Shown here one piece after another: positions 7,483 to 60,337 of a DNA stretch of 64,000 nt; positions within the stretch are counted from its first letter, which is position 1, and each line of letters begins with the position of its first letter. The notes below the pieces were generated by a model. That model was not told where the DNA came from. It saw only the letters and a program-made list of their open reading frames with translations, and ran no database searches. This stretch comes from Arenicellales bacterium (GTDB lineage: Bacteria; Pseudomonadota; Gammaproteobacteria; Arenicellales; JAJDZL01), in contig OZ241916.1 of NCBI GenBank assembly GCA_965203865.1, positions 2,872,738 to 2,936,737 on the forward strand, given 5' to 3'. The position numbers were made by a program, and so were the translations under genes.

Positions 7483-7509
7483 ATCACTGATTAGGCGGAA
7501 TTTAATCAA

Positions 7510-9657: not shown

Positions 9658-9662
9658 GACTG

Positions 9663-22073: not shown

Positions 22074-23489
22074 TTAATCTTGCCTGATTTTCCAGCGTGC
22101 AGTTCTACCACGACCAGAAGAGACGATCTTGCCTTGCTCCCTGAGATTGTCCAAAGCTCTTCTGATTTGCCGTTCAGATGCGAATGAGCCTACGCGAGAA
22201 GAAATTTCTTCAAATGACAGGCCGTCAGCCGCATCCAACAATAAATGCAGAATATCAGCTTGCCTTTCAGGAAGAGTCCTTCTCACACGCTGGTCCAGAA
22301 GTGATTGACTGTTGCGGCGAAAGCGTACAGTAACACATCCACCTGCATCTTCTATTTCAGGATTCGGCAATCCTGCGTCAGATAGCCATTCTGCAATCCT
22401 GATTGTACCGCGCCCCCATTCTTCAATAATGCCACTCAAAAAGAAACTGCGAGCAATCAGTGGATTCCACGGTTGAGAATCATGCGGCAAAAATAATTTT
22501 TCCGGTGTAAGTCCAAAATGCAATGACCCTGATGAGGTAATTTCAAGACGATCATCATAAACAGCCACACCAACAGATCCCCCAAGAATCAAGTAGTCCC
22601 GGTGACAAAAAGCATTTGCGAGAGCTTCTCGAATTGCTTCCCAAGGGTAAAGTGGTTTATCAATGCGCTCAGATCTACCCTCCTCAAATCTACTTGCTAT
22701 TGGTAGATGATCTCTTAAAAATCGCTCTGCATCTGAAAATAGCTTAAAGGCGTTTCCACGATACTGGCGATTGTCCGATATTTCAGTGCGATCCAACCCT
22801 CGAAACCTGGCGGTACGGAGCAAACATTGAGGGTAGTCAAATTCTATGCGTTCTGTATTGCCATATAGAACAACAGCTGCCTGTAGTAACTGACCATCTT
22901 GAATCAACCTCAACCCTCTTAACATATCAATTGGGTCTCGAGATACATAACCATCCAGCATACCTCGTTGAATTGCAATAGACACTACGCGAAAAATCTC
23001 TGATTCATCCAGGTCATCAATCGACCAATTTGCGGCAACCTGATTCTCCCATCTTTGTCGAGAGTGCATGCTCTCCAGTATCATCTGCTTGTATTCATCT
23101 GATGAAACCGCAATCGTAGTATTGCCAACCCTTCGATACGGCAATCCGCGATAAACATAAGGGTCTGACCTGCCTGCTTTTACTTCTACCGCGAGCACCT
23201 CAAGATTGCCACCAATTTGAATTCTCTCAATAGCTGGAAATACAGACGGTTCAATTCTTTGAAATTCAGCGCTTAATCTTTCAATTGTTTGCTCAGAAAC
23301 TTTTTGACCAATAACTCTTCCACTTTGTTCAATTCCAAACAGAATATATCCACCTCGCTGATTGAGCATTGCACACATAGTTTTTGCGGCTTCCCGACGT
23401 GCACCGGTCATTCGTTTAAATTCAAGCGTCTCTGATTCACCCGCTTTAACCTGATACTTGATTTGCTCGAGATTCATTGCTGCATTCAC
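22074..23489 (-). CDS. AlbA_2 (Schlafen-like DNA-binding) / HATPase_c_4-type ATP-binding protein with C-terminal wHTH
   Basis: 471-aa ORF. N-terminal GESETLEFKR is typical of the AlbA_2 domain. The central ANAFCHRDY motif and a C-terminal winged-helix-like tail (IRRALDNLREQGKIV) follow. Confidence 0.7.
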   Translation of the reverse strand: MNAAMNLEQIKYQVKAGESETLEFKRMTGARREAAKTMCAMLNQRGGYILFGIEQSGRVIGQKVSEQTIERLSAEFQRIEPSVFPAIERIQIGGNLEVLAVEVKAGRSDPYVYRGLPYRRVGNTTIAVSSDEYKQMILESMHSRQRWENQVAANWSIDDLDESEIFRVVSIAIQRGMLDGYVSRDPIDMLRGLRLIQDGQLLQAAVVLYGNTERIEFDYPQCLLRTARFRGLDRTEISDNRQYRGNAFKLFSDAERFLRDHLPIASRFEEGRSERIDKPLYPWEAIREALANAFCHRDYLILGGSVGVAVYDDRLEITSSGSLHFGLTPEKLFLPHDSQPWNPLIARSFFLSGIIEEWGRGTIRIAEWLSDAGLPNPEIEDAGGCVTVRFRRNSQSLLDQRVRRTLPERQADILHLLLDAADGLSFEEISSRVGSFASERQIRRALDNLREQGKIVSSGRGRTARWKIRQD

Positions 23490-30994: not shown

Positions 30995-31432
30995 CTACCA
31001 TGACTTTTGTAATCGAGTTTCGATTTGGGTTGCCGACCTAATTCTCAAACCTTCCTCGAAATGAAGAAGAAGCCAGTACTCAAATTTTGGATTGCTTAGT
31101 GCTAATCCACGGCTATGAGCTTTTTGGGACCAATTATGAATCTTCAGCAATTGGTCTTCTGGCCAATTATCCCGGTCAACAATTATCCAGGTTTCGTCAT
31201 TTTCACCCAATGTGTTGTCTTTTAAATACTTATTGATTCGATTCAATAAATTTTCCGGGGCTACCTTTGTTGAACTAAAATTTAACGAATGAGTTCGTGC
31301 CGCTTCAGCAAAATTGTTCAAAATTCTGAAATACTGGGGTTCTGTTCTCCTACCCTCTGTACTCAAAATAAATAGTTTTTTAGGTGTCCTTGTCGGGTGT
31401 GTGCTTCTCGTGCTTCTGAATTTATGAGTCAT
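30995..31432 (-). CDS. RloB-like small Toprim-type protein
   Basis: Likely start is MTHKFRS (Met60 of the 204-aa ORF), one nt after the upstream stop. Motifs are FILSTEGRRTEPQYF (Toprim Glu), WIIVDRDNW (DxD) and LALSNPKFEYWLLLHFE. Confidence 0.8.
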   Translation of the reverse strand: MTHKFRSTRSTHPTRTPKKLFILSTEGRRTEPQYFRILNNFAEAARTHSLNFSSTKVAPENLLNRINKYLKDNTLGENDETWIIVDRDNWPEDQLLKIHNWSQKAHSRGLALSNPKFEYWLLLHFEEGLRIRSATQIETRLQKSW

Positions 31433-31433
31433 T

Positions 31434-32786
31434 TCATTCGCCAATAAAATCACGAGAAATTTCAGCGGGCTGGATTTCTGGTATTCCACCATACCGTCCT
31501 TGCAGATAACTTTTACGAATATCTTTATCGTAGCGAATGTCTTTAAAATCACTAAGAGAGAATAAAGAAGATTGACCGTATGTATCCCTTTCCATATGCC
31601 ATATTTCATCTCTGCGAAACAGTCTTTGGTCTATCAACGAATTATCATGAGTCGTGAACAGCAATTGCGTTTGTGTTCCAGAATTACAATTTTTCAAGTA
31701 GGTTTCAAGTAGAGTTCTTGTCATAAGGCTATGTAAGCAACGGTCGATTTCATCAATTAAATATACTCCCGACCGTTTGGGGGATGATTGTTGCGTAGCT
31801 GACAAATCAAGGAAGGCTGGTAAAAGGTCAATTGCACGTTGCGTCCCATGTGACTCAAGATGAATCTCAAAAGGCGTTTCCTTGTCATCTAGCGTACGAT
31901 GATATGCAATTAATTTCTTCGCAAGAATTTCACCATTTTCACGAGAAACAACAAATCGACCAGCCTGGTCAAGTAATACTCGGAGGCTCTCCCCCTCCTT
32001 TAATTCCTTTTCAATTTTAGATTTTATCTGTTCAGGCAACCGAAGATTATTAAATGGGACTTCCTCGTTGCCTAGCCGAAAAATTCCTGTATCTAAATGC
32101 TGTAGAATTTCACTCATATTTTCGTAAAGCGGGCTTGCTTCATCAATAAACTGTTCCAACCCCGCAAATCGACTATCGGGGGCAACTAGTTCAAGTGTCT
32201 TTTTGAACCAGTTGTAAACTGCTTTTAACTCTTTAGTTTTCTTGTATACAGATTTATGAGATACAGCATTTGTAAGAAAAAGCTGGTTCTCCCATGTTCC
32301 GTCAATTATGAATTTCAAATACTCATTTTTTGACAGATAACTGTGGAGGGCTATACGGTCATTCACTCGGTCAAATATTACTTTCTCACTACTGCTATTG
32401 AATATCACAAGTTTTTCTTTCAATACGTAATTCTTGTTCACGGAGAAGCTGTATTCATAAATCAAATTATCTATTAACAACTCAAATTTAAAATCGGTTG
32501 GACGTTTCAAACTTTTTGAATCTAGCCGAAATGGTTCCACTGGAATTAGTTCATCCGATTTTGTCCCTTCAATTATCAATGTTCTAGCAAAGTTGAGAGC
32601 CATGAACAAATTTGTTTTTCCTGAAGCATTCCCGCCGAATATCGCTGCAACTGGAAGAATTTTTGCTTGAAATTTTTTCAATTTAAAAATTCGTTCGCGA
32701 TGCTGTCGCTCTCGGGTGGCAATCATGGAAAATTTGGTCTCTTTACGAAAAGACATCCAGTTTTTTACTGTAAAACTTAGTAACAT
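31434..32786 (-). CDS. ABC-type (AAA_21/AAA_15-like) ATPase, partner of the RloB-like protein
   Basis: 450-aa ORF. Walker A FGGNASGKTNLF, Walker B/D-loop region YLIDEIDRCLHSL, and FTTHD. The C-terminus is SYLQGRYGGIP. Confidence 0.85.
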   Translation of the reverse strand: MLLSFTVKNWMSFRKETKFSMIATRERQHRERIFKLKKFQAKILPVAAIFGGNASGKTNLFMALNFARTLIIEGTKSDELIPVEPFRLDSKSLKRPTDFKFELLIDNLIYEYSFSVNKNYVLKEKLVIFNSSSEKVIFDRVNDRIALHSYLSKNEYLKFIIDGTWENQLFLTNAVSHKSVYKKTKELKAVYNWFKKTLELVAPDSRFAGLEQFIDEASPLYENMSEILQHLDTGIFRLGNEEVPFNNLRLPEQIKSKIEKELKEGESLRVLLDQAGRFVVSRENGEILAKKLIAYHRTLDDKETPFEIHLESHGTQRAIDLLPAFLDLSATQQSSPKRSGVYLIDEIDRCLHSLMTRTLLETYLKNCNSGTQTQLLFTTHDNSLIDQRLFRRDEIWHMERDTYGQSSLFSLSDFKDIRYDKDIRKSYLQGRYGGIPEIQPAEISRDFIGE

Positions 32787-33267: not shown

Positions 33268-33344
33268 CGGGGTATGGCGCAGTCTGGTAGCGCGCCTGCT
33301 TTGGGAGCAGGAAGCCGGGGGTTCAAATCCCTCTACCCCGACCA
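33268..33344 (+). tRNA. tRNA-Pro (anticodon UGG)
   Basis: A 77-nt cloverleaf folded by hand. Acceptor stem CGGGGTA/TACCCCG, D-arm GCGC-AGTCTGGTA-GCGC, anticodon arm CCTGC-TTTGGGA-GCAGG, T-arm GGGGG-TTCAAAT-CCCTC, discriminator A and an encoded CCA. Confidence 0.93.
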
Positions 33345-33514
33345 ATTTCTCCGGCAAGATAGACTTAACCAATGGGTCGCAACCGCAAATTCTGCTTGCT
33401 GTAATAGTCGCCAAGAAATCTCTAATCTTGTACAAACTTCCCTTGGTTTGAACTTGGTGCTGGTGGCTTGAAATGCCGCCAGCAAACTGACTCACTACTT
33501 GCAGATTAACTTTT

Positions 33515-34489
33515 CTATTTAGACTTCTTGGTTGGCAAGTGTGGGCCTATATACCCAATCTCTATACTTTGGGTAACCTTACAAAGACGAAAATGAATTC
33601 TCCCAACATTGCCAAAACGAGCATGCCACTCAAAAAATTCTTTCGAGCCCTCAGCGCTTAAAAAACTTCGACGTTCACGCAACTTCGGATTCGTTCTCAC
33701 ATTTTCTCCCTCTGGAGAAACACGGCATTTGAATTCAGGAAGGCTTGATTTTTTGACACGCCATTCTTCGCAGGTTTCATTCAATGCTTTTAATCTTTTG
33801 ATAACAGTTGGAAACTCCTGTTTGGGTAAATCTTGAATATGTTGCTCAACATCGAGACCAAATTTGAGGAACTGAAAAACGGAACATTTCATCGCCCAAA
33901 AGTCGCGTTGGTTCAAATTGACTTGTAACAGTTCAAGGTGAGACTCACAAATTGAATTTGCATGCCGGGCTTGTGTGAGGTTGTCTATGGTTTCTGATAC
34001 TTGTTCAACCGAACTGTCTTCGTACAATTCATTGAAATTGACCTTAATTTGCTCACAGTCCCAATTTTTGGATGAAAAACCGACTGCGATTGAATCAGTC
34101 ACAACACATAGAATTAAGGGGGCACCATCGTCGGGAGGCAATTTAACTTGATTTTGCGTTGAGTGAGATAAATACTCACAGTTGCTAAATCTTTCCTTAT
34201 ATGTTGCTTCGAGATTTTTATCTAGTGGATATTGGGCACTCAATTTTAAAAGAAGTTTAATCGAATCTTTAGCCTCCTGATAGTTATACGAACTTGGGTC
34301 TAAAAAACCATTCGGCTCTATTAGCTGCTGAATTTGCGGCCATTCTTTGGACATCCTCAGATTATTTTTTACAGCATTATTTGAAATCAGCAATGAAATG
34401 CCCGCCATAACATCTTTCAGCAGATGCGTCGCTTCATGGCGGTTATATGCCACAAGACTCACATGGTTGAGAACCATTTCACGTTTCAT
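33515..34489 (-). CDS. hypothetical protein, third gene of the DUF262-like/ATPase triad
   Basis: 324-aa ORF starting 1 nt after the ATPase gene stop. No motif could be assigned. The C-terminus is FFEWHARFGNVGRIHFRLCKVTQSIEIGYIGPHLPT. Confidence 0.7.
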   Translation of the reverse strand: MKREMVLNHVSLVAYNRHEATHLLKDVMAGISLLISNNAVKNNLRMSKEWPQIQQLIEPNGFLDPSSYNYQEAKDSIKLLLKLSAQYPLDKNLEATYKERFSNCEYLSHSTQNQVKLPPDDGAPLILCVVTDSIAVGFSSKNWDCEQIKVNFNELYEDSSVEQVSETIDNLTQARHANSICESHLELLQVNLNQRDFWAMKCSVFQFLKFGLDVEQHIQDLPKQEFPTVIKRLKALNETCEEWRVKKSSLPEFKCRVSPEGENVRTNPKLRERRSFLSAEGSKEFFEWHARFGNVGRIHFRLCKVTQSIEIGYIGPHLPTKKSK

Positions 34490-34490
34490 T

Positions 34491-35624
34491 TCAAAATTTC
34501 TGTTTCGGTACTAGCAGTTGAGCTAAATTCTGTTCATACTGGTCAAAAAATCCTTCTGGCCATTCCGACAATCTTCCATCGGGGTCAATTTCTGGAGTAG
34601 ATACAATTGATTTGCCCTTGTCGCGATTAAAATAATGAATTGAAACTTGATTCGGCTCAATTAATTCGTTCCTTACAGCGATTCGTACACCATCCAAGAA
34701 ATGGTCGCTATGTGTCTCTACAATTACTTGAACACCTGCCAAGGCAGCTAGCGCCGTTAATTCCGCAAGTTTCGTCTGTCCTCTCGGATGTAAATGAGCC
34801 TCTGGATTTTCAATTATGCAAAGTGTGCCTGGTCGGGACAGGAGTGAAACTATTACTGGCAAGACATACGAAAGACCAAATCCAACATTTGTCGCTCGAT
34901 AGACCCTTGACTCAACATCTTCGGGCTGGTCGAATTGAAATCCAGCACGGACAAAATCAACATCTTCAATAGGTTGGATTTTTAGGTGGGCACCTGGAGT
35001 CACTTCTTGAATCCAATGATCAACACCCGAAATAATGGTATTTTTTATCAAGCCCTTACATCTAGGATCATCTGGTTCCAAAGTTTTATTACTACGAGTA
35101 TATAGGTAACTCATTGAGTATTCGCCTTGCGCTCCAATCTGGCCGCTAGATGCAAATGCCTCAGAATGCGAATAAATTTTTTGCGGACCAATTCTCCCTG
35201 CACTAACATACCTGAATTTTCCTCCCAAGGGCGGCGTTTTGTGCCAGGAATTGTAAACACCTTGCTTGACTGGACAATCAGCAAAACTCAATTGGTCTGA
35301 TTTAGAGGCTTTGCCAGAACAGTCAAAACTTGATTTAAATATGGTTTGATTTTTATTATCTGTCAACTCTATCCGAGTTATGTCGGATTCTGAATTCTCA
35401 AACAGTATGTCGTACCCCGTACCCAACTCTATTAAACTTCCATTTAAGTTCAGTTTGCTGTCTCGTAAATCACCAGACTCAAATGACTGACGCAATAACA
35501 GCAAAGCTTGAATGACAGTGCTTTTCCCAGCACCATTGATGCCGCATAACAAGGTTAAGGGGGAACATTTTATATCCGCCTTCTCGAAACACTTAAAATT
35601 TGCAAGTTTAATTCTGCTAATCAC
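34491..35624 (-). CDS. AAA ATPase of the DUF3696 / AAA_15-21 type
   Basis: 377-aa ORF. N-terminus IKLANFKCFE, Walker A CGINGAGKST, IIENPEAHLHPRGQ, ETHSDHF, and C-terminal WPEGFFDQ. Confidence 0.85.
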   Translation of the reverse strand: MISRIKLANFKCFEKADIKCSPLTLLCGINGAGKSTVIQALLLLRQSFESGDLRDSKLNLNGSLIELGTGYDILFENSESDITRIELTDNKNQTIFKSSFDCSGKASKSDQLSFADCPVKQGVYNSWHKTPPLGGKFRYVSAGRIGPQKIYSHSEAFASSGQIGAQGEYSMSYLYTRSNKTLEPDDPRCKGLIKNTIISGVDHWIQEVTPGAHLKIQPIEDVDFVRAGFQFDQPEDVESRVYRATNVGFGLSYVLPVIVSLLSRPGTLCIIENPEAHLHPRGQTKLAELTALAALAGVQVIVETHSDHFLDGVRIAVRNELIEPNQVSIHYFNRDKGKSIVSTPEIDPDGRLSEWPEGFFDQYEQNLAQLLVPKQKF

Positions 35625-36856
35625 GAAGAAACAATCTCATGTATAAGACTTTGAATTGACTCAAATCGTTTCCTAACCCTTTGTGATAAACCGGTTGAAT
35701 AACTAATTGCTTTGTCAAATTCATCGTCTCGCAATACCAAATTTTTGAATTTATCCACGACTGATTCTTTTTGCTTGATGAGTACGTTTATTTCCTGTGA
35801 CGAACATTTTGCCAAGCAAACACTCCATACTTCAAATAGCGGTTTGCTAATTGGGGCTCTTGAATTATCAGGCTTGGGTTTCCGAAATGCTCTATCATCA
35901 AATATCTTTCGGGCTGCTGTCATCGAATCGAAGAATTTTCTTTTGGGCAACTCAAGGTCACCTTCGCTCATTTGGTTGACCTGTCGCATAGTGTTGACGA
36001 GAAAGCTATCAAGACTGTTCTCTTTGTAGTTTTCCCAGCCATTGAAATAAAAAGCAAGAAATCTTAACACACACTCTCGGTCTACCATTCGTTTTGGTCT
36101 TACCGAATTATCAGTTGCCAATTTGAATTCTTCAGAATCCGCAAGCTCCTTCAAATAATTTCTAACTTTACCGGGATTTAAAGCATGGCGAATTTCCTGT
36201 CCGTTTAACATCATACCGCCAGTATTGATTCGTTTAAAAATATTAAACATAACAGTAATGGGGGTTCTTGAATCAATTACATTGACAATTAACTGAGTCT
36301 CGTTAATTCGTCTTTGCATCGGTCTTGGAAGTTTATCATAGGAATTGCTGTCAAACCGGTCCAAATATTCCAAAGACCTTAGTTTAAATTTATTTCCAAC
36401 AAAATCGTTGATTGTTGAAATCCTTTGAATGCCATCAACCACCGACCAGTGTTCCTGGTTGTCAGCGGCAACATAGAAGACCGGAATAGGTACACGAAGC
36501 AACAATGATTCAATAAGTCTACTCTGTTGTACAGGACTCCATATCCCAATGTTCCTTTGCCATTCGGGGGATAGCTCTATCTCATTGTGTTCCATTCGCA
36601 AAACAATTTGTCCAACTGTAATATTTATCGTGTTTATTTTTATTTCTTCTGGATTGTATGGATCTTTAATGTCTGCAATTTTCGGATTTGGGTCATCCGG
36701 TTCCTCCTCAACATCAATATAGGCATCGTTTGTCTGAGGAAGTTCTCGGGAGGGGCATCCTGTATTTTTGTTTTTCAAGCTTAATAAATCCTCGTTCTGG
36801 TCACTGAATTCACCTTCAACTTGATTAGATTGATCGTCTATACATATTGATTGCAT
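35621..36856 (-). CDS. DUF262-type (ParB/Srx-fold, GmrSD N-terminal-like) protein without a recognisable HNH/DUF1524 tail
   Basis: 411-aa ORF. An acidic N-terminal extension is followed by PEWQRNIGIWSPVQQSRLIESLLLRVPIPVFY and VVDGIQRISTI (a variant of the DGQQR motif). It overlaps the ATPase gene by 4 nt. Confidence 0.8.
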   Translation of the reverse strand: MQSICIDDQSNQVEGEFSDQNEDLLSLKNKNTGCPSRELPQTNDAYIDVEEEPDDPNPKIADIKDPYNPEEIKINTINITVGQIVLRMEHNEIELSPEWQRNIGIWSPVQQSRLIESLLLRVPIPVFYVAADNQEHWSVVDGIQRISTINDFVGNKFKLRSLEYLDRFDSNSYDKLPRPMQRRINETQLIVNVIDSRTPITVMFNIFKRINTGGMMLNGQEIRHALNPGKVRNYLKELADSEEFKLATDNSVRPKRMVDRECVLRFLAFYFNGWENYKENSLDSFLVNTMRQVNQMSEGDLELPKRKFFDSMTAARKIFDDRAFRKPKPDNSRAPISKPLFEVWSVCLAKCSSQEINVLIKQKESVVDKFKNLVLRDDEFDKAISYSTGLSQRVRKRFESIQSLIHEIVSS

Positions 36857-37680
36857 TTCGCCCTCCTAGAGGGTCATAGTTAAAATATGGGAGCTTCGCA
36901 TTTCCAAGTATGAAACAAAAATAAGGAATTGAGAATCTTCACAATCTTTATTTGCGCTACATAACAACTGGGAAACTTGATTGTCATCGTTATGCCGGTA
37001 GTAGAATTTTTACTTCTGTAATTCTAATCGGCCAATCCGTCAAGTGTCAATTTTTATCGAAAAACAGAGTTTCCCGCTGGAAAGAAATTGAAGGCGAAAT
37101 TGTTGATTTTCCAGATTCGGCCAAGGCATGACAATGTTCTGGTCGGTGAATTCGGAGCTTGACCCCAAAGATTTTCGTGTTGCGAAATCGCGAATTTTCA
37201 GCGATTTTCGAGTTTCGGACGTGCCAGTGCCTGCCGCTTCTGGCAGCATGGTCAAGACCGGGACGACAAGCGGGTTTCAGGCGGTCAGCGGTGTCACCAG
37301 ACTGCGCATCTTGTCGGGCTTGTTCTTTTCCTGGTAGCCCAAGGCAATCGGCTTTGCGGAACGCTTCAAAATCTTCCCCGTCCAACAGGCTACAATAGAA
37401 CATGAAATTTGGTTTCGCCAGATTGCTTCTCCTGAGGCTTATAGCACCTCTTGAATGTGTATTACATTCTGTTCACTGTACCTCTGGAGGGCTTTCATGG
37501 TAACATTTTTTAAGTGTAAACAAGAAGTTGCAACAGATCCCGAGGATGCCGACGAGCCAGGCATGAAGGCGGGGTAGAAACGCGGCAAAAACAGGCGAAA
37601 TCGGTGTTTCAAGCCTTGAAAACGCAGATTCTTGGGGTAAAAAAATTTCAGGCAGTCAAATTCTCGTGTGAAATCAACAG

Positions 37681-37703
37681 CTTGGCAACTACGAAACTAA
37701 CTC
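37681..37703 (+). repeat. 23-nt motif CTTGGCAACTACGAAACTAACTC (copy 2 of 2)
   Basis: Matches 10895..10917 at 22 of 23 positions. Confidence 0.8.
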
Positions 37704-38141
37704 TCGAATAGGCTTGTTCGGCGGTGCTTCACCGCATTGAATATCTTGAATCTGATCTATTGGGCAGACACTCTCGCTTGCCGCCGGTGAAAACTCGTCC
37801 GCACAGCCGCTTCATGCCGTCGATTCGGACCTCGAACCTTGCTGATAAGCCGATCCGCTCAGTACCGGCACCGAATTGCACCGGGCAAATCGGAAAAACT
37901 CAACGCTAACGATTGCATGCATTTGTCTTCACTGCCTAATACAGCTTTCCCAGCCTTAAGCGGGGATCTGGGTTTAACAATACATGAGCAATTCTCAGAT
38001 ATGCTTCTCTTATGATTTTGTGAAGTTGTCCAAAGCAAACTCTCCCAAATCCAAACTGTCACATTGAAAAATGGACTGATGCTCTTCAGTCAATGAAAAA
38101 CATCAGTCATACAAATTTCTGTTTAGATTCAGTTTAAGTGT

Positions 38142-41100
38142 TTACCAGTCCAAAGTAGTTTTCAGCACCACTCTGTTGTCCGACGACTTGGCATCGCTTT
38201 CATGGTGTTCAAACTCAAGTTGCAACTCAAGCGTTGATTCTGTCGAGAATCTTGTGCCAACACGATAATCTCGCGAGCTTTCTTGAATACCCAAACCGAT
38301 GTACGGAGTGACTAGTCCGTTGCTGCCATAAACTCCGTATCCGATTTCAGAATCAAATCTTGATGTTGTTTCGGTTTTGCCCTCGGCAAGATTGCTTGTC
38401 GAAACACTGCGTTCCCAGAAGGAGGAACCGGATTCGCTGTTCGCTCTTCCAGTCGAAATTGAAGCGTTGTAAATCAAGCCTGCGGAACCTGACACGGGTT
38501 GCCGTCGCACCATGGCTCCGACTCCCCATACCTTGTTGTCATTTTTATGTGCAATGAGATAGCGCAGGTTTACACTCGCTGTAACACCTGATTTCAAATC
38601 ACTGTACTTGACACTGCCGCCCAATTCAGCGCCAGCACCGGTTTCACCGTCACCGCCGTCCCAGCGGACACCAAGCTCTACAGAGGGTGTCATGCATGAA
38701 TCGGGACTCATCGCACATTTCTGCGAAGCTTCCAATGCAACACGCAAGCCTTGAGTTTTGATCTTGCTGCCAGCTTGCTGTCCTGCTCTGGGCTTGATTT
38801 TCAGGTTCGAACCCCAAATTTCACTTTTCACGCTGAGTGTCACCGGGGACTCGCTATCATCTCCAATCGTTCTCAATCCATAGCGCCCACCGGCTACCAA
38901 CTGCAGCATCTCTGTCTTGTTTGAGAAGCTGTCCTGTACAGAGTCATTGTAGTCAATCCGTCCCTGCCCGAATCCCAGCGAAGCCCAGGCATCGAACTCA
39001 TCCGTTACTGACCAGCCTATGTAAGGACTCAGCATGGTCATGCGGGTTTTCAGCGTGCCGCTAGAGTTCTGAGTTCCAGCATTCGAGTAGTTGAAACTTC
39101 CTCTGGATACACCCAATGAAATTCCCGCCAGCATTCCCGAGTCAAGCATAGTATCTGTCCCCAGGTGAAACCCAAACAAGTTTCCGTCCCAGTTCAAAGC
39201 GCTATTGCCGCCGCTTGACAAGCGTGTGTAGTCCGCTGAACCCCATATCGCCATGCCGCCTTCTGCAGCACCTCCGGAATGAGATGACGACAAGCTGCCG
39301 CCAGGTGAATAAGCGAAACTTGCTCCGTCAAGCGCTTGCTCAAGTGAGCCAGTTGAATCTTCCAGATCTTTGTTGCGCTCATGATTCACCAGTCGCTTCA
39401 GAATGGATATGAATTCATCATCATTGTGGCTCATTGCGCCCGATATGCTACCGGCAATTACGGCTGAAATTCTGCCAGACAACGCGGCAACTGTGCTAGC
39501 AGTTATTTCGCGTACCACACTCGCGACGATTTCTTCTTCAATCTCTTCTTCAAGCGGCCCTCTCGCTGCTGCAGCAGGAGGAGGAGCGGGTTCGGGTATT
39601 CGCGCATCGCTTACGGTCACCAAAACACTGGAAATATTCAACGACGTTGTATACGTGGCATCACCAGATGTGACTCTATGGGTGAGTCTTGCAGTACTAT
39701 CGAAATTGTCGATATCTGAATACGCTGTAACTGTCACCGTCTGCGCAGTGGCGTAGTCGGTTGATGTAAAAGTCAGTTCATTCTGATTGCCTGCTGTTTC
39801 AGAATCAGTGTCGACTACGACATCGCTGTTGGTACTGCTGACCATAATTACAACATCGCTTGTCGGTGCCTGAGCCAATACGACTGTGTAAGTACCAATA
39901 TTGGCGTTCGTATTGTCAGTGTCCGTATCGTCAGGCGATTCTTCCTCAAGTGCCAAGGTTTGCTTGCTAACTACTACATCGGTAGTTGCTGGTGCCACTT
40001 CCACCAAAACCGGGTTCGATCGCAAACTCTCCGTGCCTGTGTGCACAATTGCATTGGCTATTACCACGATCCATTTTGGTTCATAAAAATTAGGATCTCC
40101 AGTAAAAGCAAGGATAAGTTCGTACCGGGTCGCGCTCCCCACCACTATAGCAGGAGTAGCAACGCTTAAACCCTCTATATTCGTTACCAACTCGTAGCTT
40201 GCCGCTTCAAGGCTTTCATTTCCCATGAACGTTAAACCACCTGACAACGTCATATTTAATCTTGCACCGTTCAAATTGCCGCTGTTCAACTGGGCGGATG
40301 TCGGAGAAATGCTCAGGTTACTAGTAGCAACAGTAGTGCCATCGTCGTTCATGATGTATCCGATGGCGGCTATGGAACAATTACCTGGCGAACCGGTATC
40401 AGGAAATCCCGGAAGAGCGGCTACACTACCAACACATGCACGCAGATTAGTATTAAACGTTGCTGGCGCATTATCCTCAGTAGGCGATCTAGTATAAGGC
40501 TTGTCCAGTGTTACCTGAATCGTCTCGTGCGCCTCCACGTCCGTGTCCCCCACAATCGAAAAACTGATTTGCTTGGCTGTCTCGCCTTGAGCAAAGGACA
40601 CTACTCCGGTGTTGCTGCTAGCTCTGTAGTCTTGACCAAAGGTTGCTGTGCCAGCTACTACATAAGGTACATTAATCACTGTATCGCTTGCACCACTAAG
40701 CGTTACAGTGAAAGTCATGGTCTTTGTACCGCTATTGCCTTCCGTGACGCTTGGAAAGTTTACCGACACAACTGGAGTACCACTGTTGTCATTGACTGAT
40801 ACCACCACACTTTCAATTGATGTATCAAAGGATGCAGGACCACTGGTAATACTGTGGCTTAGTATCGCACTGTCGTCCCTAAAGTCAGTATCAGAAGCTG
40901 CTGTAACTGTCACCGTCTGATCAGTGCCGAAGTTGCTTGTTGTAAAAGTCAGCGTACTTGGGTCTACAGTTACATCATGATTGTTGCTACTGATTGAAAT
41001 TGTCAGATTTTCTGAGGGGGCAGCACCCAAAGACACATTGTAAGTATCGCTACTACCTTCATTGACGGACAAGCTCTCCGAACTGACAGTTACTCCTGGT

Positions 41101-42761
41101 CCAGGCGGTGCCGTAATAGTAACTGTTTCGATCAAATCGCTCCCCGCACTTCGCAGATTTGCAAGATTCGGGGGCAACCGGTCAGAGTAGCTGCCGAGTC
41201 GAAACGGCGGTCTTGTTTGCCGACCGCCTTGCGCTCGAACACTCACAACCTCCAATGTGAATGTTTCATCGTCGTCCGATACGGAGTCTGCATTCAACTG
41301 AAAGCATAGCAACCAGCCCGAAGCAGCCACGCCTGGCGTACTTCCTTGCCCAGAAGCCGTTCCCCCGAAGCGCAGATTAAATCTATCTTGAGCATCCAAC
41401 TCCAATGAACCAGAAGCACCAACAGCAGGATTACCGCAATTTGCCAACTGGGTTAATGAAACCGGGTTAATATCAGCGCTCGCAGTATCTTTATTCCTGC
41501 CTGTTGTAGCAGTACCTTTAACTTGCAGAGTTGCTGTGTACAAATTTGTGCTTGATATGGCTCTGTTATTTCCAACTGAGTCTTGAATCTTTACGCGAAA
41601 CCTTAGCATCTTGTCCCGCTCCGGTTCGGAAGCGGAAGTGCCGGCCTCTCGAGTAACCACCAGTTTATACGCCTCCTGGCTTGACCGTATCTTTTCAACA
41701 GCACTGCCATTGCCGCTGGATATGGTAACTGTCTCGCCGGATATTGTGCTACCCAATCTACGAGTAGAACCCGAAGTCGTAATACTGTTCACAATCGTTA
41801 GATTAAACGATTCATCAGGTTCGGCGACAGTGTCAAATGCAATGGGTACTATCAGCTCAAGCCGGCCTCGTGAGCTTGTATTAATCTGTTCAGGAGTGAA
41901 CACCTGGTAGCACACTAGGCCCCGGGTGCAATTGCGCCCCATCACGCCAGTCTTGTCGTTTGGCCAAGCCCCTATATCGCTTGATGTAAACCCTGCACCG
42001 CCTGTGCTTGCGGCGGTCAATCTAAACGGTACGGTGATGTTACCTACTGCCCTAGGTACCGTAGGCTCGCCGTTTACTATCGGACCAGTAAAAGTGACCC
42101 GGAAATTTGCTGTACCGCCTTCTCGTGAATGGTCAGAGGGTTCTCCAACAGATACAATGAGCCCGGACGGATTCAAGGTGCTGGCTGCAATGGTACCATC
42201 CGCGTACTGACTTGCACCTGTAGCAAGCGCGTAGGTAGTACCGCCAACCTCGGCACTTAGAAAACCAGTCAGAGTAACTCTATAGGATTCTGCTGCCTCT
42301 TCTGCCCCATCATTAAATATAGGAACAGTGATCGTACCTGTTGTTGCTCCCGGCAGGATGGTGGCAAATCCTCCGAAGTATTGATAACATCCACTTGCTG
42401 GTGGTGCTTGGCCAGGTGCTTCTCTTTGTTGAGCACAATTACGTTGATACTCATTCTGGCGGTCTCCAAAGTCTCCCGGCTCTGCATCATCATCACTAGT
42501 ACTTGGAGTCGCAGCGATACGATATCCTACTCTTAGCGAAGCTGCGCTTCCAACCGCTCCGGGAACAGCTGTCGTTGCAGTAACCGTAAAAGTCGCACTT
42601 GACCCTTCGGCTGTATTTGTAGCAGATGCTGCCGCTATTGACACCGTCCCCGTCGTCTGCGCAAAAGCTTGAACGGACAGGAACAGCACCGAAAATAAAA
42701 CAGCTGCCTGGAGGAATGAATTTACAACAATTCTTGATTTTCCAGCATTAGCATTGACCAC
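38142..42761 (-). CDS. giant Calx-beta repeat autotransporter-type adhesin (paralog A)
   Basis: 1539-aa ORF with signal peptide ...FLSVQAFAQ. Calx-beta-like units are present, e.g. VTEGNSGTKTMTFTVTLSGASDTVINVPYVVAGTATFGQDYR...ETIQVTL. The C-terminal roughly 450 aa look like an autotransporter beta-barrel and end in an aromatic residue (TTLDW). Confidence 0.8.
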   Translation of the reverse strand: MVNANAGKSRIVVNSFLQAAVLFSVLFLSVQAFAQTTGTVSIAAASATNTAEGSSATFTVTATTAVPGAVGSAASLRVGYRIAATPSTSDDDAEPGDFGDRQNEYQRNCAQQREAPGQAPPASGCYQYFGGFATILPGATTGTITVPIFNDGAEEAAESYRVTLTGFLSAEVGGTTYALATGASQYADGTIAASTLNPSGLIVSVGEPSDHSREGGTANFRVTFTGPIVNGEPTVPRAVGNITVPFRLTAASTGGAGFTSSDIGAWPNDKTGVMGRNCTRGLVCYQVFTPEQINTSSRGRLELIVPIAFDTVAEPDESFNLTIVNSITTSGSTRRLGSTISGETVTISSGNGSAVEKIRSSQEAYKLVVTREAGTSASEPERDKMLRFRVKIQDSVGNNRAISSTNLYTATLQVKGTATTGRNKDTASADINPVSLTQLANCGNPAVGASGSLELDAQDRFNLRFGGTASGQGSTPGVAASGWLLCFQLNADSVSDDDETFTLEVVSVRAQGGRQTRPPFRLGSYSDRLPPNLANLRSAGSDLIETVTITAPPGPGVTVSSESLSVNEGSSDTYNVSLGAAPSENLTISISSNNHDVTVDPSTLTFTTSNFGTDQTVTVTAASDTDFRDDSAILSHSITSGPASFDTSIESVVVSVNDNSGTPVVSVNFPSVTEGNSGTKTMTFTVTLSGASDTVINVPYVVAGTATFGQDYRASSNTGVVSFAQGETAKQISFSIVGDTDVEAHETIQVTLDKPYTRSPTEDNAPATFNTNLRACVGSVAALPGFPDTGSPGNCSIAAIGYIMNDDGTTVATSNLSISPTSAQLNSGNLNGARLNMTLSGGLTFMGNESLEAASYELVTNIEGLSVATPAIVVGSATRYELILAFTGDPNFYEPKWIVVIANAIVHTGTESLRSNPVLVEVAPATTDVVVSKQTLALEEESPDDTDTDNTNANIGTYTVVLAQAPTSDVVIMVSSTNSDVVVDTDSETAGNQNELTFTSTDYATAQTVTVTAYSDIDNFDSTARLTHRVTSGDATYTTSLNISSVLVTVSDARIPEPAPPPAAAARGPLEEEIEEEIVASVVREITASTVAALSGRISAVIAGSISGAMSHNDDEFISILKRLVNHERNKDLEDSTGSLEQALDGASFAYSPGGSLSSSHSGGAAEGGMAIWGSADYTRLSSGGNSALNWDGNLFGFHLGTDTMLDSGMLAGISLGVSRGSFNYSNAGTQNSSGTLKTRMTMLSPYIGWSVTDEFDAWASLGFGQGRIDYNDSVQDSFSNKTEMLQLVAGGRYGLRTIGDDSESPVTLSVKSEIWGSNLKIKPRAGQQAGSKIKTQGLRVALEASQKCAMSPDSCMTPSVELGVRWDGGDGETGAGAELGGSVKYSDLKSGVTASVNLRYLIAHKNDNKVWGVGAMVRRQPVSGSAGLIYNASISTGRANSESGSSFWERSVSTSNLAEGKTETTSRFDSEIGYGVYGSNGLVTPYIGLGIQESSRDYRVGTRFSTESTLELQLEFEHHESDAKSSDNRVVLKTTLDW

Positions 42762-44026: not shown

Positions 44027-47000
44027 CTACCAGTCGAGAGTCGTTTTCAGCACCATCCTGTTGTCTGACGATTTGACATCGCTTTCATGATGCTCAAACT
44101 CAAGTTGCAACTCAAGCGTTGAATCTGTCGAGAATCTGGTGCCAACACGATAATCTCGCGTGCTTTCCTGAATCCCCAGACCGATGTACGGAGTGACTAG
44201 TCCGTTGCTGCCATAAACTCCGTATCCGATTTCAGAATCGAATCTTGATGTTGTTTCTGTTTTGCCCTCGGCAAGATTGCTTGTTGAAACACTGCGCTCC
44301 CAGAAGGAGGAACCGGCTTCGCTGTTCGCTCTTCCAGTGGAAATAGAAGCATTGTAAGTCATGCCTGCAGAACCTGACACAGGTTGCCGACGCAGCATGG
44401 CTCCGATTCCCCATACCTTGTTGTCATTTTTATGTGCAATGAGATAGCGCAGGTTTACACTCGCTGTAACACCTGATTTGAAATCACTGTACTTGACACC
44501 GCCGCCCAATTCAGCGCCAGCGCCGGTTTCACCGTCACCTCCGTCCCAGCGGACACCAAGCTCTACAGAGGGTATCATGCATGAATCGGGACTCATCGCA
44601 CATTTCTGCGAAGCTTCCAATGCAACACGTAGGCCTTGAGTCTTGATCTTGCTGCCAGTTTGACCTGCTGCTCTGGGCGCGATTTTCAGGTTCGAGCCCC
44701 AAATTTCACTTTTCACGCTGAGTGTCACCGGGGACTCGCTATCATCTCCAATTGTCCTCAACGCATAACGCCCACCGGCTACCAACTGCAACATCTCTGT
44801 CTTGTTTGAGAAGCTGTCCTGTACAGAGTCATTGTAGTCAATCCGTCCTCGTCCGAATCCCAGTGATGCCCAAGCATCGAACTCATCTGTTACTGACCAG
44901 CCTATGTAAGGACTCAGCATGACCATGCGAGGTTTCAGCGTACCGCTAGAATTCTGAGTTCCGGCATTCGAGTAGTTGAAACTTCCTCTGGATATACCCA
45001 ATGAAACTCCCGCCAGCATTCCCGAGTCAAGCATGGTATCTGACCCCAGGTGAAACGCAAACAAGCTTCCGTCCCAGTTCAAATCGCTATTGCCACCGCT
45101 TGACAAGCGTGTGTAGTCCGCTGAACCCCATATCGCGATGCCGCCTTCTGCCGCACCTCCGGAATGAGATGACGACAAGCTGCCGCCGGGTGAATAAGCG
45201 AAACTTGCTCCGTCAAGAGCTTGTTCAAGCGAGCCAACTGAATCTTCCAGATCTTTGTTGCGCTCATGATTCACCAGTCGCTTCAGAATGGACATGAATT
45301 CATCATCATTGTGGCTCATTGCACCGGATATGCTGCCGCCAATAACGGTTGAAATTCTGCCAGACAAAGCCGCAACTGTGCTAGAAGTTATCTCGCGTAC
45401 CACATTCGTGACGATTTCTTTTTCAAGCTCTTCTTCAAGCGACCCCCTCTCTGGAGGAGTAGGAGGAGTATTAGGGTCAGAAGCGTCTTCGGGTGATTGC
45501 TGCACATCGCTTAAGGTCACCAGAACACTGGAAATATTCAACGTCGTTGGATACATCGTTCCACCAGCAGTTGTGATGCTATGGGTAAGTCTTGCGGTAC
45601 TATCGAAATTGTCGATATCTGAATACGCTGTAACTGTAACCGTCTGCGCAGTGGCGTAGCCGGTTGATGTAAAAGTCAGTGTATTCTGATTGCCTGCTGT
45701 TTCAGAATCCGTGTCGACTACGACATCGCTGTTGGTACTTTCGACCGTAATTACAACATCGGTTGTCGGTGCCTGAGTCAATACGACCGTGTAAGTACCA
45801 ATATTGTCATTGTCCTCATCGTCGGGCGATCTTTCCTCAAGCGCCAAGGTTTGCTTGCTAACTACTATATTAGTGGTTGCTGGCGCCACTGCCACCGAAA
45901 CCGGGGCCGAGGTCAAACTCTCCGTGCCTGAGTGCGCAGCTGCCTTGGCTATTACCGCGATTGATTTCGCTTCATAAAAATCAGGAGCGGTATCAGGATA
46001 AGCAAGGGTAATGGTCAACGTCGTTGTAGTGGGTCGCGTTACAGTATTAATTGTTAGACCCTCTATGCTCGTTACCAACTCGTAGTTGGTTGCTGTAGTA
46101 GCAGCTGAACCAAACGTTCCACTTGACAACGTCATATTTAATACTGCACTGTTCAAATTACCGCTGTTCAACGAAGTAGGACTTGACGTAGAAATGGCCA
46201 AGTTACTAGTAGCAAGAGTAGTGCCGTCGTCGTTCATAATGTATCCGATGGCGGCTATGGAGCAATTACCTGGCGAATCTCCTACAATGGCAGCAACACA
46301 TGCTCTCAGATTATCATTAAACGTTGCTGGTGGTAAGGCTTCATTAGGCGCTCTAGAATAAGGCTGGTCCAGTGTGACCTGAATCGTCTCATGTGCTTCG
46401 GGTGTCGTGTCCCCCACAATCGAAAAACTGATTATCTTTGATGTCTCGCCTTGAGCAAAGGACACATTTCCGATATTGGGGGTAGCTCTGTAGTCGGTTC
46501 CCGACTCTGCCGTGCCACCTAATACATAAGGTACATTAATCACCCTATCGCTTGCACCACTAAGCGTTACAGTGAAAGTCATCGTCTTTGTACCGCTATC
46601 GCCTTCCGTGACGCTCGGAAAGTCTACCGACACAACTGGAGTACCGGTGTCATTGACTGATACCACCACACTTTCAATAGATGAATCAAAGGATGCAGGA
46701 CCACTGGTAATACTATGGCTTAGTATCGCACTGTCGTCCCTAAAGTCGGTATCATCTGCTGCTGTAACTGTCACCGTCTGCTCAGTGCCGAAGTTGCCTG
46801 TTGTAAAAGTCAGCGTACTTGGGTTTACAGTTACATCATGATTGTTGCTACTGATTGAAATTGTCAGATCTGCTGAGGGTGCAGAAGCCAAAGACACATT
46901 GTAAGTATCGCTACTACCTTCATTGACGGACAAGCTCTTCGAACTGACAGTTACTCCTGGTCCAGGCGGTGCCGTAATAGTAATTGTTTCGATCAAATCG

Positions 47001-48529
47001 CTCCCCGCACTTCGCAGATTTGCCATATTACCCGGCAACCGGCCATAGTAGCTGCCGCGGAAAAACGGTGGTCTTGATTGCCGACCGCCTTGTGCTCGAA
47101 CACTGACAACCTCCAATATAAATGTTTCGCCGACATCCGATACGGAATCTGCATTCAACTGAAAGCATAGCAACCAGCCCGAAGCAGCCACGCCTGGCGT
47201 ACTTCCTTGCCCAGAAGCTGTGCCCCCGAAGTTCAGATTAAATCTATCTTGAGTATTCAACTCCAATGAACCAGCCACACCAACAGCAGGATTACCGCAA
47301 TTTGCCGACTGGGTTATTGAAACTGGGTTAATATCAGCGCTCGCAGTATCTTTGTTACTGCCTGTTGTAGCAGTACCTTTAACTTCCAGAGTTGCCGTGT
47401 ACAAATTTGCGCTTGATATAGCTCTGTCAATTCCAGCTGAGTCTTGAATCTTCACACGAAACCTTAGCATCTTGTCCCGCTCCGGTTCAGAAGCGGAAGT
47501 GCCAGCCTCTCGAACCACCACCAGCTTATACGCCTCTTGGCTAGACTGTATCTTTTCAAAAGCCCTGCCGTTGCCGCTGGATATGGTAACTGTCTCGTTG
47601 GATATTGTGCTACCCAGGCTACGAGTAGATCCCGAAGTCGTAATACTGCTTACAATCTCTAGATGAAACGATTCATCAGGTTCGGCGGCATTGTCAAATG
47701 CAATGGGGACTTCCAGATAAAGTCCGTTTCGCAAGCTCGTGTTAATCTCTTTAGGAGTGAACACTCGGTAGCACACCAGGCCCGCGGCGCAAGTACGTCC
47801 ACTCACTTCAGGCGCATCAGTCGGCCAAGCTCCTATATCGCTTGCTGTAAAACCTGTGGTAATGGCCGTCAATCTAAACGGTACGGTAATGTTGCCTACT
47901 GCCGTACCAGTAAAACTGACCGGGAACAATGCTGTCCCGCCTTCGAGCGAATGGCCAGCGGGTTCTCCAACAGATACAGTGAGTCTGGACGGATTCGAGG
48001 AGCTGGGTCCAGTGCTGGATGCAATGGTACCATCCGCGTGCGGATTTGTAACAAGACTGTACGTAATAGTACCAGCTGTAGCGCTACCTTGAAAACCAAT
48101 CAGAGTGACTCTATAGGATTCTGCGGACTCTGCTGCACCATCATTAAATATAGGAACAGTAATCGTAGCTGTTGTTGCCCCCGCCGGTATAACAACTCTT
48201 GCTCCTGATAGGTAACTGCTACGTTGAAGCGTATTATCGCGATTTCCAAAATCACCCGCCTCTGCATCATCATCACTAGTACTGGGGGTCTTACCGATAC
48301 TATACCTTACTCCTAGCTGATTACCAGCAGGAACAGTTTGCGATGCAGTAACCGTAAAAGTCGCACTTGACCCTTCGGCTGTATTTGTAGCAGATGCTGC
48401 CGCTATTGACACTGTCCCCGTCGTCTGCGCAAAAGCTGGAACAGACAGGAACAGCACCGAAAATAAAACAGCTGCCTGGAGGAATGAATTTACAACAATT
48501 CTTGATTTTCCAGTATTACCATTCATCAC
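44027..48529 (-). CDS. giant Calx-beta repeat autotransporter-type adhesin (paralog B)
   Basis: 1500-aa ORF. The signal peptide and C-terminal barrel are nearly identical to paralog A. The passenger is mosaic, with divergent blocks and indels. Confidence 0.8.
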   Translation of the reverse strand: MMNGNTGKSRIVVNSFLQAAVLFSVLFLSVPAFAQTTGTVSIAAASATNTAEGSSATFTVTASQTVPAGNQLGVRYSIGKTPSTSDDDAEAGDFGNRDNTLQRSSYLSGARVVIPAGATTATITVPIFNDGAAESAESYRVTLIGFQGSATAGTITYSLVTNPHADGTIASSTGPSSSNPSRLTVSVGEPAGHSLEGGTALFPVSFTGTAVGNITVPFRLTAITTGFTASDIGAWPTDAPEVSGRTCAAGLVCYRVFTPKEINTSLRNGLYLEVPIAFDNAAEPDESFHLEIVSSITTSGSTRSLGSTISNETVTISSGNGRAFEKIQSSQEAYKLVVVREAGTSASEPERDKMLRFRVKIQDSAGIDRAISSANLYTATLEVKGTATTGSNKDTASADINPVSITQSANCGNPAVGVAGSLELNTQDRFNLNFGGTASGQGSTPGVAASGWLLCFQLNADSVSDVGETFILEVVSVRAQGGRQSRPPFFRGSYYGRLPGNMANLRSAGSDLIETITITAPPGPGVTVSSKSLSVNEGSSDTYNVSLASAPSADLTISISSNNHDVTVNPSTLTFTTGNFGTEQTVTVTAADDTDFRDDSAILSHSITSGPASFDSSIESVVVSVNDTGTPVVSVDFPSVTEGDSGTKTMTFTVTLSGASDRVINVPYVLGGTAESGTDYRATPNIGNVSFAQGETSKIISFSIVGDTTPEAHETIQVTLDQPYSRAPNEALPPATFNDNLRACVAAIVGDSPGNCSIAAIGYIMNDDGTTLATSNLAISTSSPTSLNSGNLNSAVLNMTLSSGTFGSAATTATNYELVTSIEGLTINTVTRPTTTTLTITLAYPDTAPDFYEAKSIAVIAKAAAHSGTESLTSAPVSVAVAPATTNIVVSKQTLALEERSPDDEDNDNIGTYTVVLTQAPTTDVVITVESTNSDVVVDTDSETAGNQNTLTFTSTGYATAQTVTVTAYSDIDNFDSTARLTHSITTAGGTMYPTTLNISSVLVTLSDVQQSPEDASDPNTPPTPPERGSLEEELEKEIVTNVVREITSSTVAALSGRISTVIGGSISGAMSHNDDEFMSILKRLVNHERNKDLEDSVGSLEQALDGASFAYSPGGSLSSSHSGGAAEGGIAIWGSADYTRLSSGGNSDLNWDGSLFAFHLGSDTMLDSGMLAGVSLGISRGSFNYSNAGTQNSSGTLKPRMVMLSPYIGWSVTDEFDAWASLGFGRGRIDYNDSVQDSFSNKTEMLQLVAGGRYALRTIGDDSESPVTLSVKSEIWGSNLKIAPRAAGQTGSKIKTQGLRVALEASQKCAMSPDSCMIPSVELGVRWDGGDGETGAGAELGGGVKYSDFKSGVTASVNLRYLIAHKNDNKVWGIGAMLRRQPVSGSAGMTYNASISTGRANSEAGSSFWERSVSTSNLAEGKTETTSRFDSEIGYGVYGSNGLVTPYIGLGIQESTRDYRVGTRFSTDSTLELQLEFEHHESDVKSSDNRMVLKTTLDW

Positions 48530-54415: not shown

Positions 54416-54598
54416 CATGCATCTAACCATAAGTAAGGAAAATCCGAATCGGCACATGCTCAACAGTGGTCTGCAGAGTTCATTCCAGCAACTGAGGTTT
54501 CCATTAGCAGCTATTAAAGGGGAAAACAAACTCGCCAGCGTGCCAATCTGGACCGTTTTGTTGTATTATTCGACAACCCTTTAATAGTTAGAGGCATG
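54416..54598. mobile_element. MITE-like element, copy A (183 bp)
   Basis: Terminal inverted repeats CATGCATCTAACCAT / ATAGTTAGAGGCATG (13 of 15 matched). Roughly 70% identical to copy B, with perfectly conserved internal blocks such as GGGGAAAACAAACTCGCCAGC. The flanking 8-mers match only partly (TTATCTTT vs TTATATAA). Confidence 0.6.
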
Positions 54599-54646
54599 TT
54601 ATATAATTTGAATGCAGCTAGATTTCCAACGGATGGAGGTGATTTG

Positions 54647-60309: not shown

Positions 60310-60337
60310 GCACAATTTCTGCTTTGAGTGTGTTATT

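Follow-up and report, generated by a model that had tools for sequence, protein, structure and literature searches.

A probable Type I Menshen anti-phage operon in a low-GC defence patch of an Arenicellales chromosome

Which system is encoded by three tightly packed genes that end beside a tRNA-Pro gene in the chromosome of an Arenicellales bacterium? The genes lie on the minus strand of a 64,000-nucleotide (nt) stretch of contig OZ241916.1 (hereafter the window, to which all positions refer). A sequence-only reading of this DNA had described a DUF262-type protein, an ATPase and an unassigned protein of 324 amino acids (aa), and had taken the triad for an unnamed three-component defence module. 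Our results indicate an intact Type I Menshen anti-phage operon, nsnA-nsnB-nsnC, with translationally coupled genes, located in a defence patch of low guanine-plus-cytosine (GC) content, a conclusion to which we assign a probability of roughly 0.88. The system has already been named and validated: the locus is real and the system is not new. What appears to be new, judged by its sequence, is a further Menshen copy in another host lineage.

Gene order and assignment to Menshen

The first gene, nsnA (35621-36856, minus strand), encodes 411 aa from an ATG start; the second, nsnB (34491-35624, minus strand), encodes 377 aa from a GTG start that overlaps the nsnA stop; and the third, nsnC (33515-34489, minus strand), encodes 324 aa from an ATG start, all as given by the list of open reading frames (ORFs). 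The first two genes overlap by 4 nt (35621-35624, GTGA) and a single nucleotide (34490) separates the second from the third, so that the three ORFs are translationally coupled. The nsnC stop lies 170 nt (33345-33514) from the 3' end of tRNA-Pro(UGG) (anticodon tgg; 33268-33344, plus strand; ARAGORN, and Rfam RF00005 at 69.5 bits), a landmark outside the system. The strand, overlap, gap and distance to the tRNA had all been described exactly by the earlier reading, as the ORF list, ARAGORN and Rfam confirm.

Each of the three proteins matched a PADLOC profile for the corresponding Menshen component. Gene 1 matched NsnA with E = 1.8e-139 (residues 47-409 on profile positions 22-383 of 385), gene 2 matched NsnB with E = 8.1e-112 (residues 1-371 on positions 1-343 of 345), and gene 3 matched two full-length NsnC profiles (E = 3.3e-51 and 1.2e-48) and no other PADLOC profile. 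As sequence comparisons, these matches (1e-51 to 1e-139) are far beyond chance, and the runner-up systems (PD-T4-2_A, 9.3e-40; HEC-03B, 9e-40; and AriA, GajA and PtuA for the ATPase) were at least 70 orders of magnitude weaker. The Pfam architecture across the triad (DUF262 only; AAA_15/AAA_21 plus DUF3696; no family) is also that published for Menshen (PMC12065111). Because each of the three proteins is matched from end to end by its Menshen counterpart, we identify the locus as Menshen. The proposal of a three-component defence module is thereby borne out, and Menshen, one of the comparisons that had been suggested, was an apt choice; the description of gene 3 as unassigned and of the triad as unnamed does not stand, since gene 3 is NsnC and the triad is an exact match to a named system.

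Menshen from Solibacillus silvestris StLB046 protects against phages T2, T4, T6 and Fado (Millman 2022, as reported by Li et al., NAR 2025, PMC12065111), and 1,997 Menshen loci have been catalogued (Li et al., NAR 2025, PMC12065111), with Type I the commonest class (PMC12065111). Published NsnA proteins combine a ParB-DUF262 domain, which bears the motifs QRxxxW, DGxQR and FxxxN, with a helical ParBDB after it, and they lack DUF1524 (PMC12065111). In the window protein, Pfam detected GmrSD_N (DUF262) alone (6.9e-18), and neither DUF1524 nor HNH was found, in agreement with the sequence-only reading of a DUF262 protein that lacks the HNH/DUF1524 tail; NCBIfam contained no family for it. The translation carries the stretches PEWQR...ESLLLRVPIP and VVDGIQRISTI, and the PADLOC match, which reaches residue 409, covers the ParBDB part. 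Among 32 homologues, R101, W106, D141-G142-x-Q144-R145 and N211 are invariant, and Q100 (at least 90%) and F207 are near-invariant; the spacing between R101 and W106 is four residues, as opposed to three in the published QRxxxW motif. Residues 1 to ~47 form a non-conserved acidic tail. In the related loci, tblastn matches to NsnA start at residue 16-63 (29-63 in all but one locus). Since these loci fail to align to the first ~47 residues, NsnA carries no added N-terminal domain; with no extra sensor domain at that end, the operon is therefore assigned to Type I. By analogy with the published family, NsnA is predicted to be the DNA or infection sensor.

NsnB gave Pfam matches to AAA_15, AAA_21 and DUF3696 (2.8e-19, residues 322-370). 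Its translation contains a Walker A motif, GINGAGKS(T), a Walker B motif, LCIIEN, the triplet GFG and an H motif, ETHSDH, as well as the sequences ENPEAHLHP and WPEGFFDQ; every motif that had been quoted earlier for genes 1 and 2 is present. This set corresponds to published Menshen NsnB, in which Walker B ends in EN rather than DE, a GxG motif replaces SGG, and an H motif and a C-terminal DUF3696 are found (PMC12065111). Published work predicts an NsnB4-NsnC2 complex held together through the DUF3696 tails (PMC12065111), and by analogy NsnB is predicted here to be a transducer that holds NsnC.

NsnC as the predicted effector

The 324-aa protein had been singled out as the likeliest effector and as a possible cryptic nuclease. 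It had no Pfam match even at E<=10, whether searched whole or split into domains, and no NCBIfam family; an exact-sequence look-up returned no record. A homologue search recovered 249 relatives, nearly all 300-330 aa long and 35-48% identical, the best full-length relative being only 48% identical. An AlphaFold2 model built from a 64-sequence alignment had a mean predicted local distance difference test score (pLDDT) of 87.3 and a predicted TM-score (pTM) of 0.81, and it divides the protein into an N-terminal alpha/beta domain (~residues 1-204, window 33878-34489, minus strand), which is PIN-like according to the family literature, and a C-terminal domain (~residues 205-324, window 33518-33877, minus strand) to which the model and Foldseek give a putative BECR/RelE RNase fold.

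The order of elements in residues 205-324 is helix, helix and several strands. When the model was searched against the PDB with Foldseek, the sole high-probability matches were the RelE toxins 3g5o_B (probability 0.99, TMt 0.72) and 2khe (probability 0.98); TMt ranged from 0.60 to 0.72, and both matches align over ~110 columns. No PDB match had E < 0.001. The fold search proposed for this protein thus returned RelE toxins as its only confident PDB matches. Six residues of the C-terminal domain (H289, R297, H299, E310, Y313 and H317) are invariant in 64/64 sequences, and R301 is kept in 63/64. The model therefore depicts this domain as a cryptic RNase effector of RelE/BECR fold with invariant residues of catalytic type, which supports, at the level of a predicted structure, the earlier choice of gene 3 as the effector. 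In most NsnC proteins the C-terminal part is an RNase effector domain of BECR (RelE/YafQ-like) type, and 35 inPIN and 9 BECR families have been distinguished (PMC12065111). In the modelled structure, the C-terminal domain would fit the His-Arg-His type PB-BECR1 particularly well. We also considered BECR-Tox2 (bioRxiv 2026), an unlikely family for the domain given that its defining KH motif is absent and NsnC has W288-H289 there. A search of PDB sequences with a profile made from the NsnC alignment gave only noise (E>=0.85), and a search of viral folds in BFVD gave no meaningful match.

In published Menshen NsnC, the N-terminal domain is PIN-like ('inPIN') and lacks the D-E-D-D catalytic set (PMC12065111), although its inactivity is disputed by a 2026 preprint according to which the PIN domain may be catalytically active (10.64898/2026.08.28.747851). 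When the N-terminal domain of the window protein was modelled by itself, pLDDT fell to 71.5, compared with 87.3 for the full-length model. Across the 64 sequences, N8, H9, S11, E105, D132, E154, E166, D169, N170, R173 and H176 of this domain are invariant or near-invariant. The family alignment supplies candidate catalytic residues for NsnC, and part of the residual value of the locus lies in the conserved polar residues of a domain that is supposed to be inactive.

The nature of the effector bears on whether the triad could be a split type IV enzyme of GmrSD kind, in which NsnA would recognise modified phage DNA and gene 3 would be a DNase that cuts in trans. The GmrSD_N match of gene 1 speaks for such an arrangement, as do a weak PADLOC match to REase_II (1.4e-11) and the action of validated Menshen on T-even phages, which carry modified cytosines. 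However, Pfam found DUF1524/HNH in none of the three proteins, the modelled effector domain resembles RelE-type RNases rather than HNH or PD-(D/E)xK DNases, and the obligatory ABC (ATP-binding cassette) ATPase has no counterpart in GmrSD. We consider a split GmrSD-like enzyme very improbable.

For the Menshen reading, a mechanism can be proposed by drawing on the published family model and on related systems that pair an ATPase with an effector. NsnA, a ParB-like DUF262 nucleoside triphosphatase (NTPase) with a DNA-binding ParBDB, would sense invading phage DNA (family model, PMC12065111) and would then signal to a GajA-like tetramer of the NsnB ABC ATPase. Paired DUF3696 tails of NsnB would clamp the N-terminal domain of NsnC, in the way that PtuA and AriA clamp their nucleases, until ATP binding or hydrolysis releases or activates it. 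The C-terminal RNase of NsnC would then cleave RNA, either of the phage or of the host, and so stop the infection.

Conservation, loss and genomic surroundings

We scanned loci that encode NsnC relatives, taking one genome per species (80 loci) and scoring gene content by tblastn with the window proteins. The loci came mostly from metagenome-assembled genomes of Acidobacteriota, Latescibacterota, Binatia, Poribacteria, Chloroflexota and Proteobacteria. The genes nsnA, nsnB and nsnC were contiguous on one strand in 72 of the 80 loci, or 72 of the 78 complete ones, two being cut by a contig end; the remaining six complete loci (6/78) have nsnB-nsnC without nsnA within 8 kilobases (kb). The triad is inherited as one unit, and the check on co-conservation that had been suggested came out in favour of the triad, with the A-B-C order in 72/78 complete loci.

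The six loci without nsnA are L034 (6841-8954), L036, L039, L043, L047 and L049. Five of them are syntenic Dehalococcoidia loci from different species, in which nsnBC lies directly downstream of an aminoacyl-tRNA-synthetase-like gene of ~1,100 aa; this pair is possibly an autonomous two-gene NsnBC variant. The NsnA-seeded survey of the Menshen paper (PMC12065111) would have missed loci of this kind.

The tRNA gene had been presented as a feature of the triad. Among 60 related loci, none had a tRNA adjoining nsnC (0/60). Att-like (attachment-site-like) direct repeats of the 3' end of tRNA-Pro were sought, and only short chance repeats were present; an integrase flanking the window operon was also sought and none was found. 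Because 0/60 related loci share the adjacency and there is neither an att repeat nor an integrase, the position beside tRNA-Pro is incidental.

Two long metagenome contigs, L081 and L082, encode NsnA homologues that are 88% identical at the amino acid level, and they provide a closer view of the history of the operon. On the sucA side both are syntenic with it (sucA-sucB-lpd-pgm), and blastn gave 91-95% nucleotide identity to the window. Their alignment runs from window position 37064 down to 35536, thereby including nsnA and the first ~29 codons of nsnB as far as the Walker A site, and resumes at 33362 beside the tRNA after ~90 unrelated nt (L081:11316-11406; L082:11315-11406). As delimited by blastn and the junction sequences, the missing segment (33363-35535) comprises most of nsnB and the whole of nsnC. 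The junction is identical in the two contigs, and nsnA is kept intact (409 aa); the common junction implies that a shared ancestor deleted or replaced nsnB-nsnC.

Synonymous divergence (dS) is 0.22-0.27 for nsnA and 0.235 for sucA. Given these similar values, the operon is ancestral at this site and has stayed intact in the window. The ratio of nonsynonymous to synonymous divergence (dN/dS) of nsnA is 0.15-0.25, and 0.146 between L081 and L082, values consistent with an orphan nsnA under purifying selection and with no visible decay, the distances being small and the test correspondingly weak.

Such losses raise the possibility that the window operon is itself decaying or silent, a remnant that no longer functions. 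The deletion of nsnB-nsnC in two close relatives would agree with this, as would the break in synteny with those relatives immediately upstream, near 37064. Against it, all three ORFs are full length relative to the profiles, all catalytic and family motifs are intact, the coupled arrangement of starts and stops is kept, and the nsnA dN/dS of 0.15-0.25 speaks for constraint rather than decay. In addition, putative signals for expression are present: a consensus scan predicts a candidate operon promoter (TTGACA-18 nt-TAGAAT, 11/12 matches; 37021-37050, minus strand) ~165 nt upstream of nsnA and just within the block shared with the relatives (block end near 37064, by blastn), and a strong Shine-Dalgarno sequence, GGAGGG, lies 4 nt ahead of the nsnA ATG. 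We therefore judge a remnant to be quite improbable.

Several points nevertheless weigh against an active Menshen operon with the proposed mechanism. The loss of nsnB-nsnC in two close relatives means that the system is dispensable. The link of the NsnC C-terminal domain to RelE is structural only, sequence profiles connecting it to neither RelE nor YafQ, and for a PIN-like fold of the N-terminal domain Foldseek gave no match above a probability of 0.21. The Menshen mechanism is itself only predicted (PMC12065111), and phage resistance has been demonstrated for the S. silvestris system alone, the window copy being known from its sequence.

A different arrangement of the parts can also be imagined, in which Menshen is not an obligate three-part machine: NsnBC would be an autonomous ATPase-toxin module like PARIS or Septu, NsnA would be an add-on sensor or have a function of its own, and the N-terminal domain of NsnC would be a second active nuclease. 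Separability of NsnA from NsnBC is hinted at because orphan nsnA persists in the relatives and the Dehalococcoidia keep nsnBC without nsnA, and activity of the N-terminal domain is conceivable because a number of its polar and acidic residues are invariant or near-invariant. We regard this proposal as speculative and rather unlikely. The intact operon, the two near-isogenic nsnBC deletions and the NsnA-less NsnBC lineage nonetheless form a natural comparison set, which could help to test how far the sensor can be parted from the ATPase and effector, the mechanism of the system being so far a prediction.

The Menshen operon lies within a low-GC stretch (GC 0.34-0.42 over 30-37 kb, versus ~0.48 on either side) that is bounded by sucA and by a giant Calx-beta-type surface protein. 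Rfam found nothing besides tRNA-Pro over 30-39 kb. Across tRNA-Pro from nsnC there is an AbiLi/AbiLii (RloB) pair (30995-32786, minus strand), comprising an AAA_21 ATPase, AbiLi (PADLOC 8.2e-81), and AbiLii (RloB; PADLOC 3.1e-18); this pair is present in relative L081 and missing in L082. Both flanks of tRNA-Pro are thus variable defence slots without an integrase or att repeat. Menshen and AbiL face each other across the tRNA gene and each comes and goes among the relatives, so that the patch offers a small example of defence turnover with no visible integrase.

Upstream of nsnA, the 1.1 kb between 37065 and 38141 hold no convincing gene (a 118-aa ORF at 37047-37403 has no family match). Synteny with the relatives ends here: upstream of nsnA they carry PALP, MTTB, metA, dut and coaBC genes, in place of which the window encodes two Calx-beta/autotransporter-like proteins of ~1,500 aa (38142-42761 and 44027-48529). 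The interval 37065-38141 is a rearrangement breakpoint.

Other defence-like genes are scattered through the window. Directly downstream of parE/parC-like genes, a five-gene cluster (4582-10823, plus strand) encodes a 685-aa GHKL/sacsin-like ATPase (PDC-M33A, 5e-33), a 280-aa PDC-M33B-like protein, a 287-aa protein without a family match, a 427-aa protein with a weak SspD-like (phosphoadenosine phosphosulfate (PAPS)-reductase-type) match, and an IscS/DndA/SspA-like cysteine desulfurase. By its sequence matches, this cluster is a candidate sulfur-dependent module for nucleic-acid modification or defence; no evidence of a link between it and Menshen was found.

The cluster is relevant to the connection with Ssp that had earlier been suggested. 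On that account, the triad would be an SspE- or SspFGH-like restriction or sensing partner of the sulfur-modification-like module at 4.6-10.8 kb, and would tell phosphorothioate (PT)-modified from unmodified DNA. DUF262 is indeed the PT-sensing domain of SspE (PMC12065111), and positions 8374-10823 encode the DndA/SspA-like cysteine desulfurase (7.6e-134) together with the weakly SspD-like protein (5.7e-09). The desulfurase, however, scores equally well as housekeeping IscS. The triad and the sulfur module are ~22.7 kb apart, with MotA/ExbB, FGE-sulfatase, pgm and sucAB-lpd genes between them, and the Menshen triad travels autonomously in 72 loci of unrelated genomes. No Ssp model in PADLOC matched genes 1 or 3 (complete lists), and none was among the best 25 of 128 matches for gene 2. 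SspFGH, for its part, has no homology to the DUF262 protein SspE and has an FtsK-like translocase, SspH (PMC8092258). An Ssp partnership is scarcely tenable on this evidence, and the suggestion is dropped.

A second low-GC patch (GC 0.36-0.40; 54596-55750 and 58117-62501, plus strand) contains a PDC-M32A-like protein (6e-63) and, as a cluster, a 730-aa double-HATPase protein, a 384-aa protein without a family match and a C5 methyltransferase for DNA cytosine (MTase_II, 4e-90). To judge from these matches, it is probably another defence or restriction-modification island. Lastly, a 471-aa protein combining Schlafen AlbA_2 with HATPase_c_4 (22074-23489, minus strand) lies beside pgm, in the same place as in L081; by sequence, its architecture is of a defence-associated type.

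Comparison with known systems

The locus shares single parts with several defence systems. NsnA matches PD-T4-2_A, from a system that also uses DUF262, at 9.3e-40 over residues 86-400, but this match is ~100 orders of magnitude below that to NsnA and the partner genes differ. Like GmrSD and SspE, NsnA has an N-terminal DUF262 NTPase with a DGxQR motif followed by a helical DNA-binding domain. Unlike those enzymes, in which DUF262 and DUF1524 are joined in one chain, the Menshen locus has no DUF1524/HNH, would deliver its output through a separate ABC ATPase and an effector of predicted RNase fold, and has no adjacent sspBCD. Membership in SspABCD-SspFGH was rejected: gene 1 encodes a DUF262 protein, SspD/SspA-like genes come no closer than ~23 kb, and SspFGH adjoins sspBCD (PMC8092258).

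The ATPase invites a comparison with PARIS (AriAB), Septu (PtuAB) and Gabija (GajAB), in which, according to the predictions of published models, a toxic nuclease is clamped and held in check by a dimeric ATPase. NsnB shares their AAA_15/AAA_21 ATPase, with partial matches to AriA (1.8e-27), GajA and PtuA, and by analogy Menshen probably works as these ATPase-nuclease systems do. These matches are nevertheless confined to the Walker A and signature ends of NsnB, and the match to the NsnB profile is stronger by 80 orders of magnitude or more. Menshen also differs in its added DUF262 sensor gene and in an effector of predicted BECR rather than Toprim/HNH fold. As candidate assignments PARIS, Septu and Gabija were set aside, homologues of AriB, PtuB and GajB being absent beside NsnB and gene 3 matching NsnC only.

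The resemblance to Type I Menshen, by comparison, extends to every component. The three-gene order is identical to that of S. silvestris; NsnA consists of ParB-DUF262 and ParBDB with no added N-terminal domain; the ABC ATPase NsnB shows a Walker B ending in EN, a GxG motif and a C-terminal DUF3696; and NsnC has two domains, the second a modelled BECR-fold RNase domain with conserved His/Arg/His. The window copy differs in that it belongs to another host lineage, that its exact proteins have no record and that its closest full-length NsnC relative reaches just 48% identity. We accordingly annotate the locus as Menshen (Type I) and its 324-aa 'hypothetical' protein as NsnC, a putative BECR-fold RNase effector.

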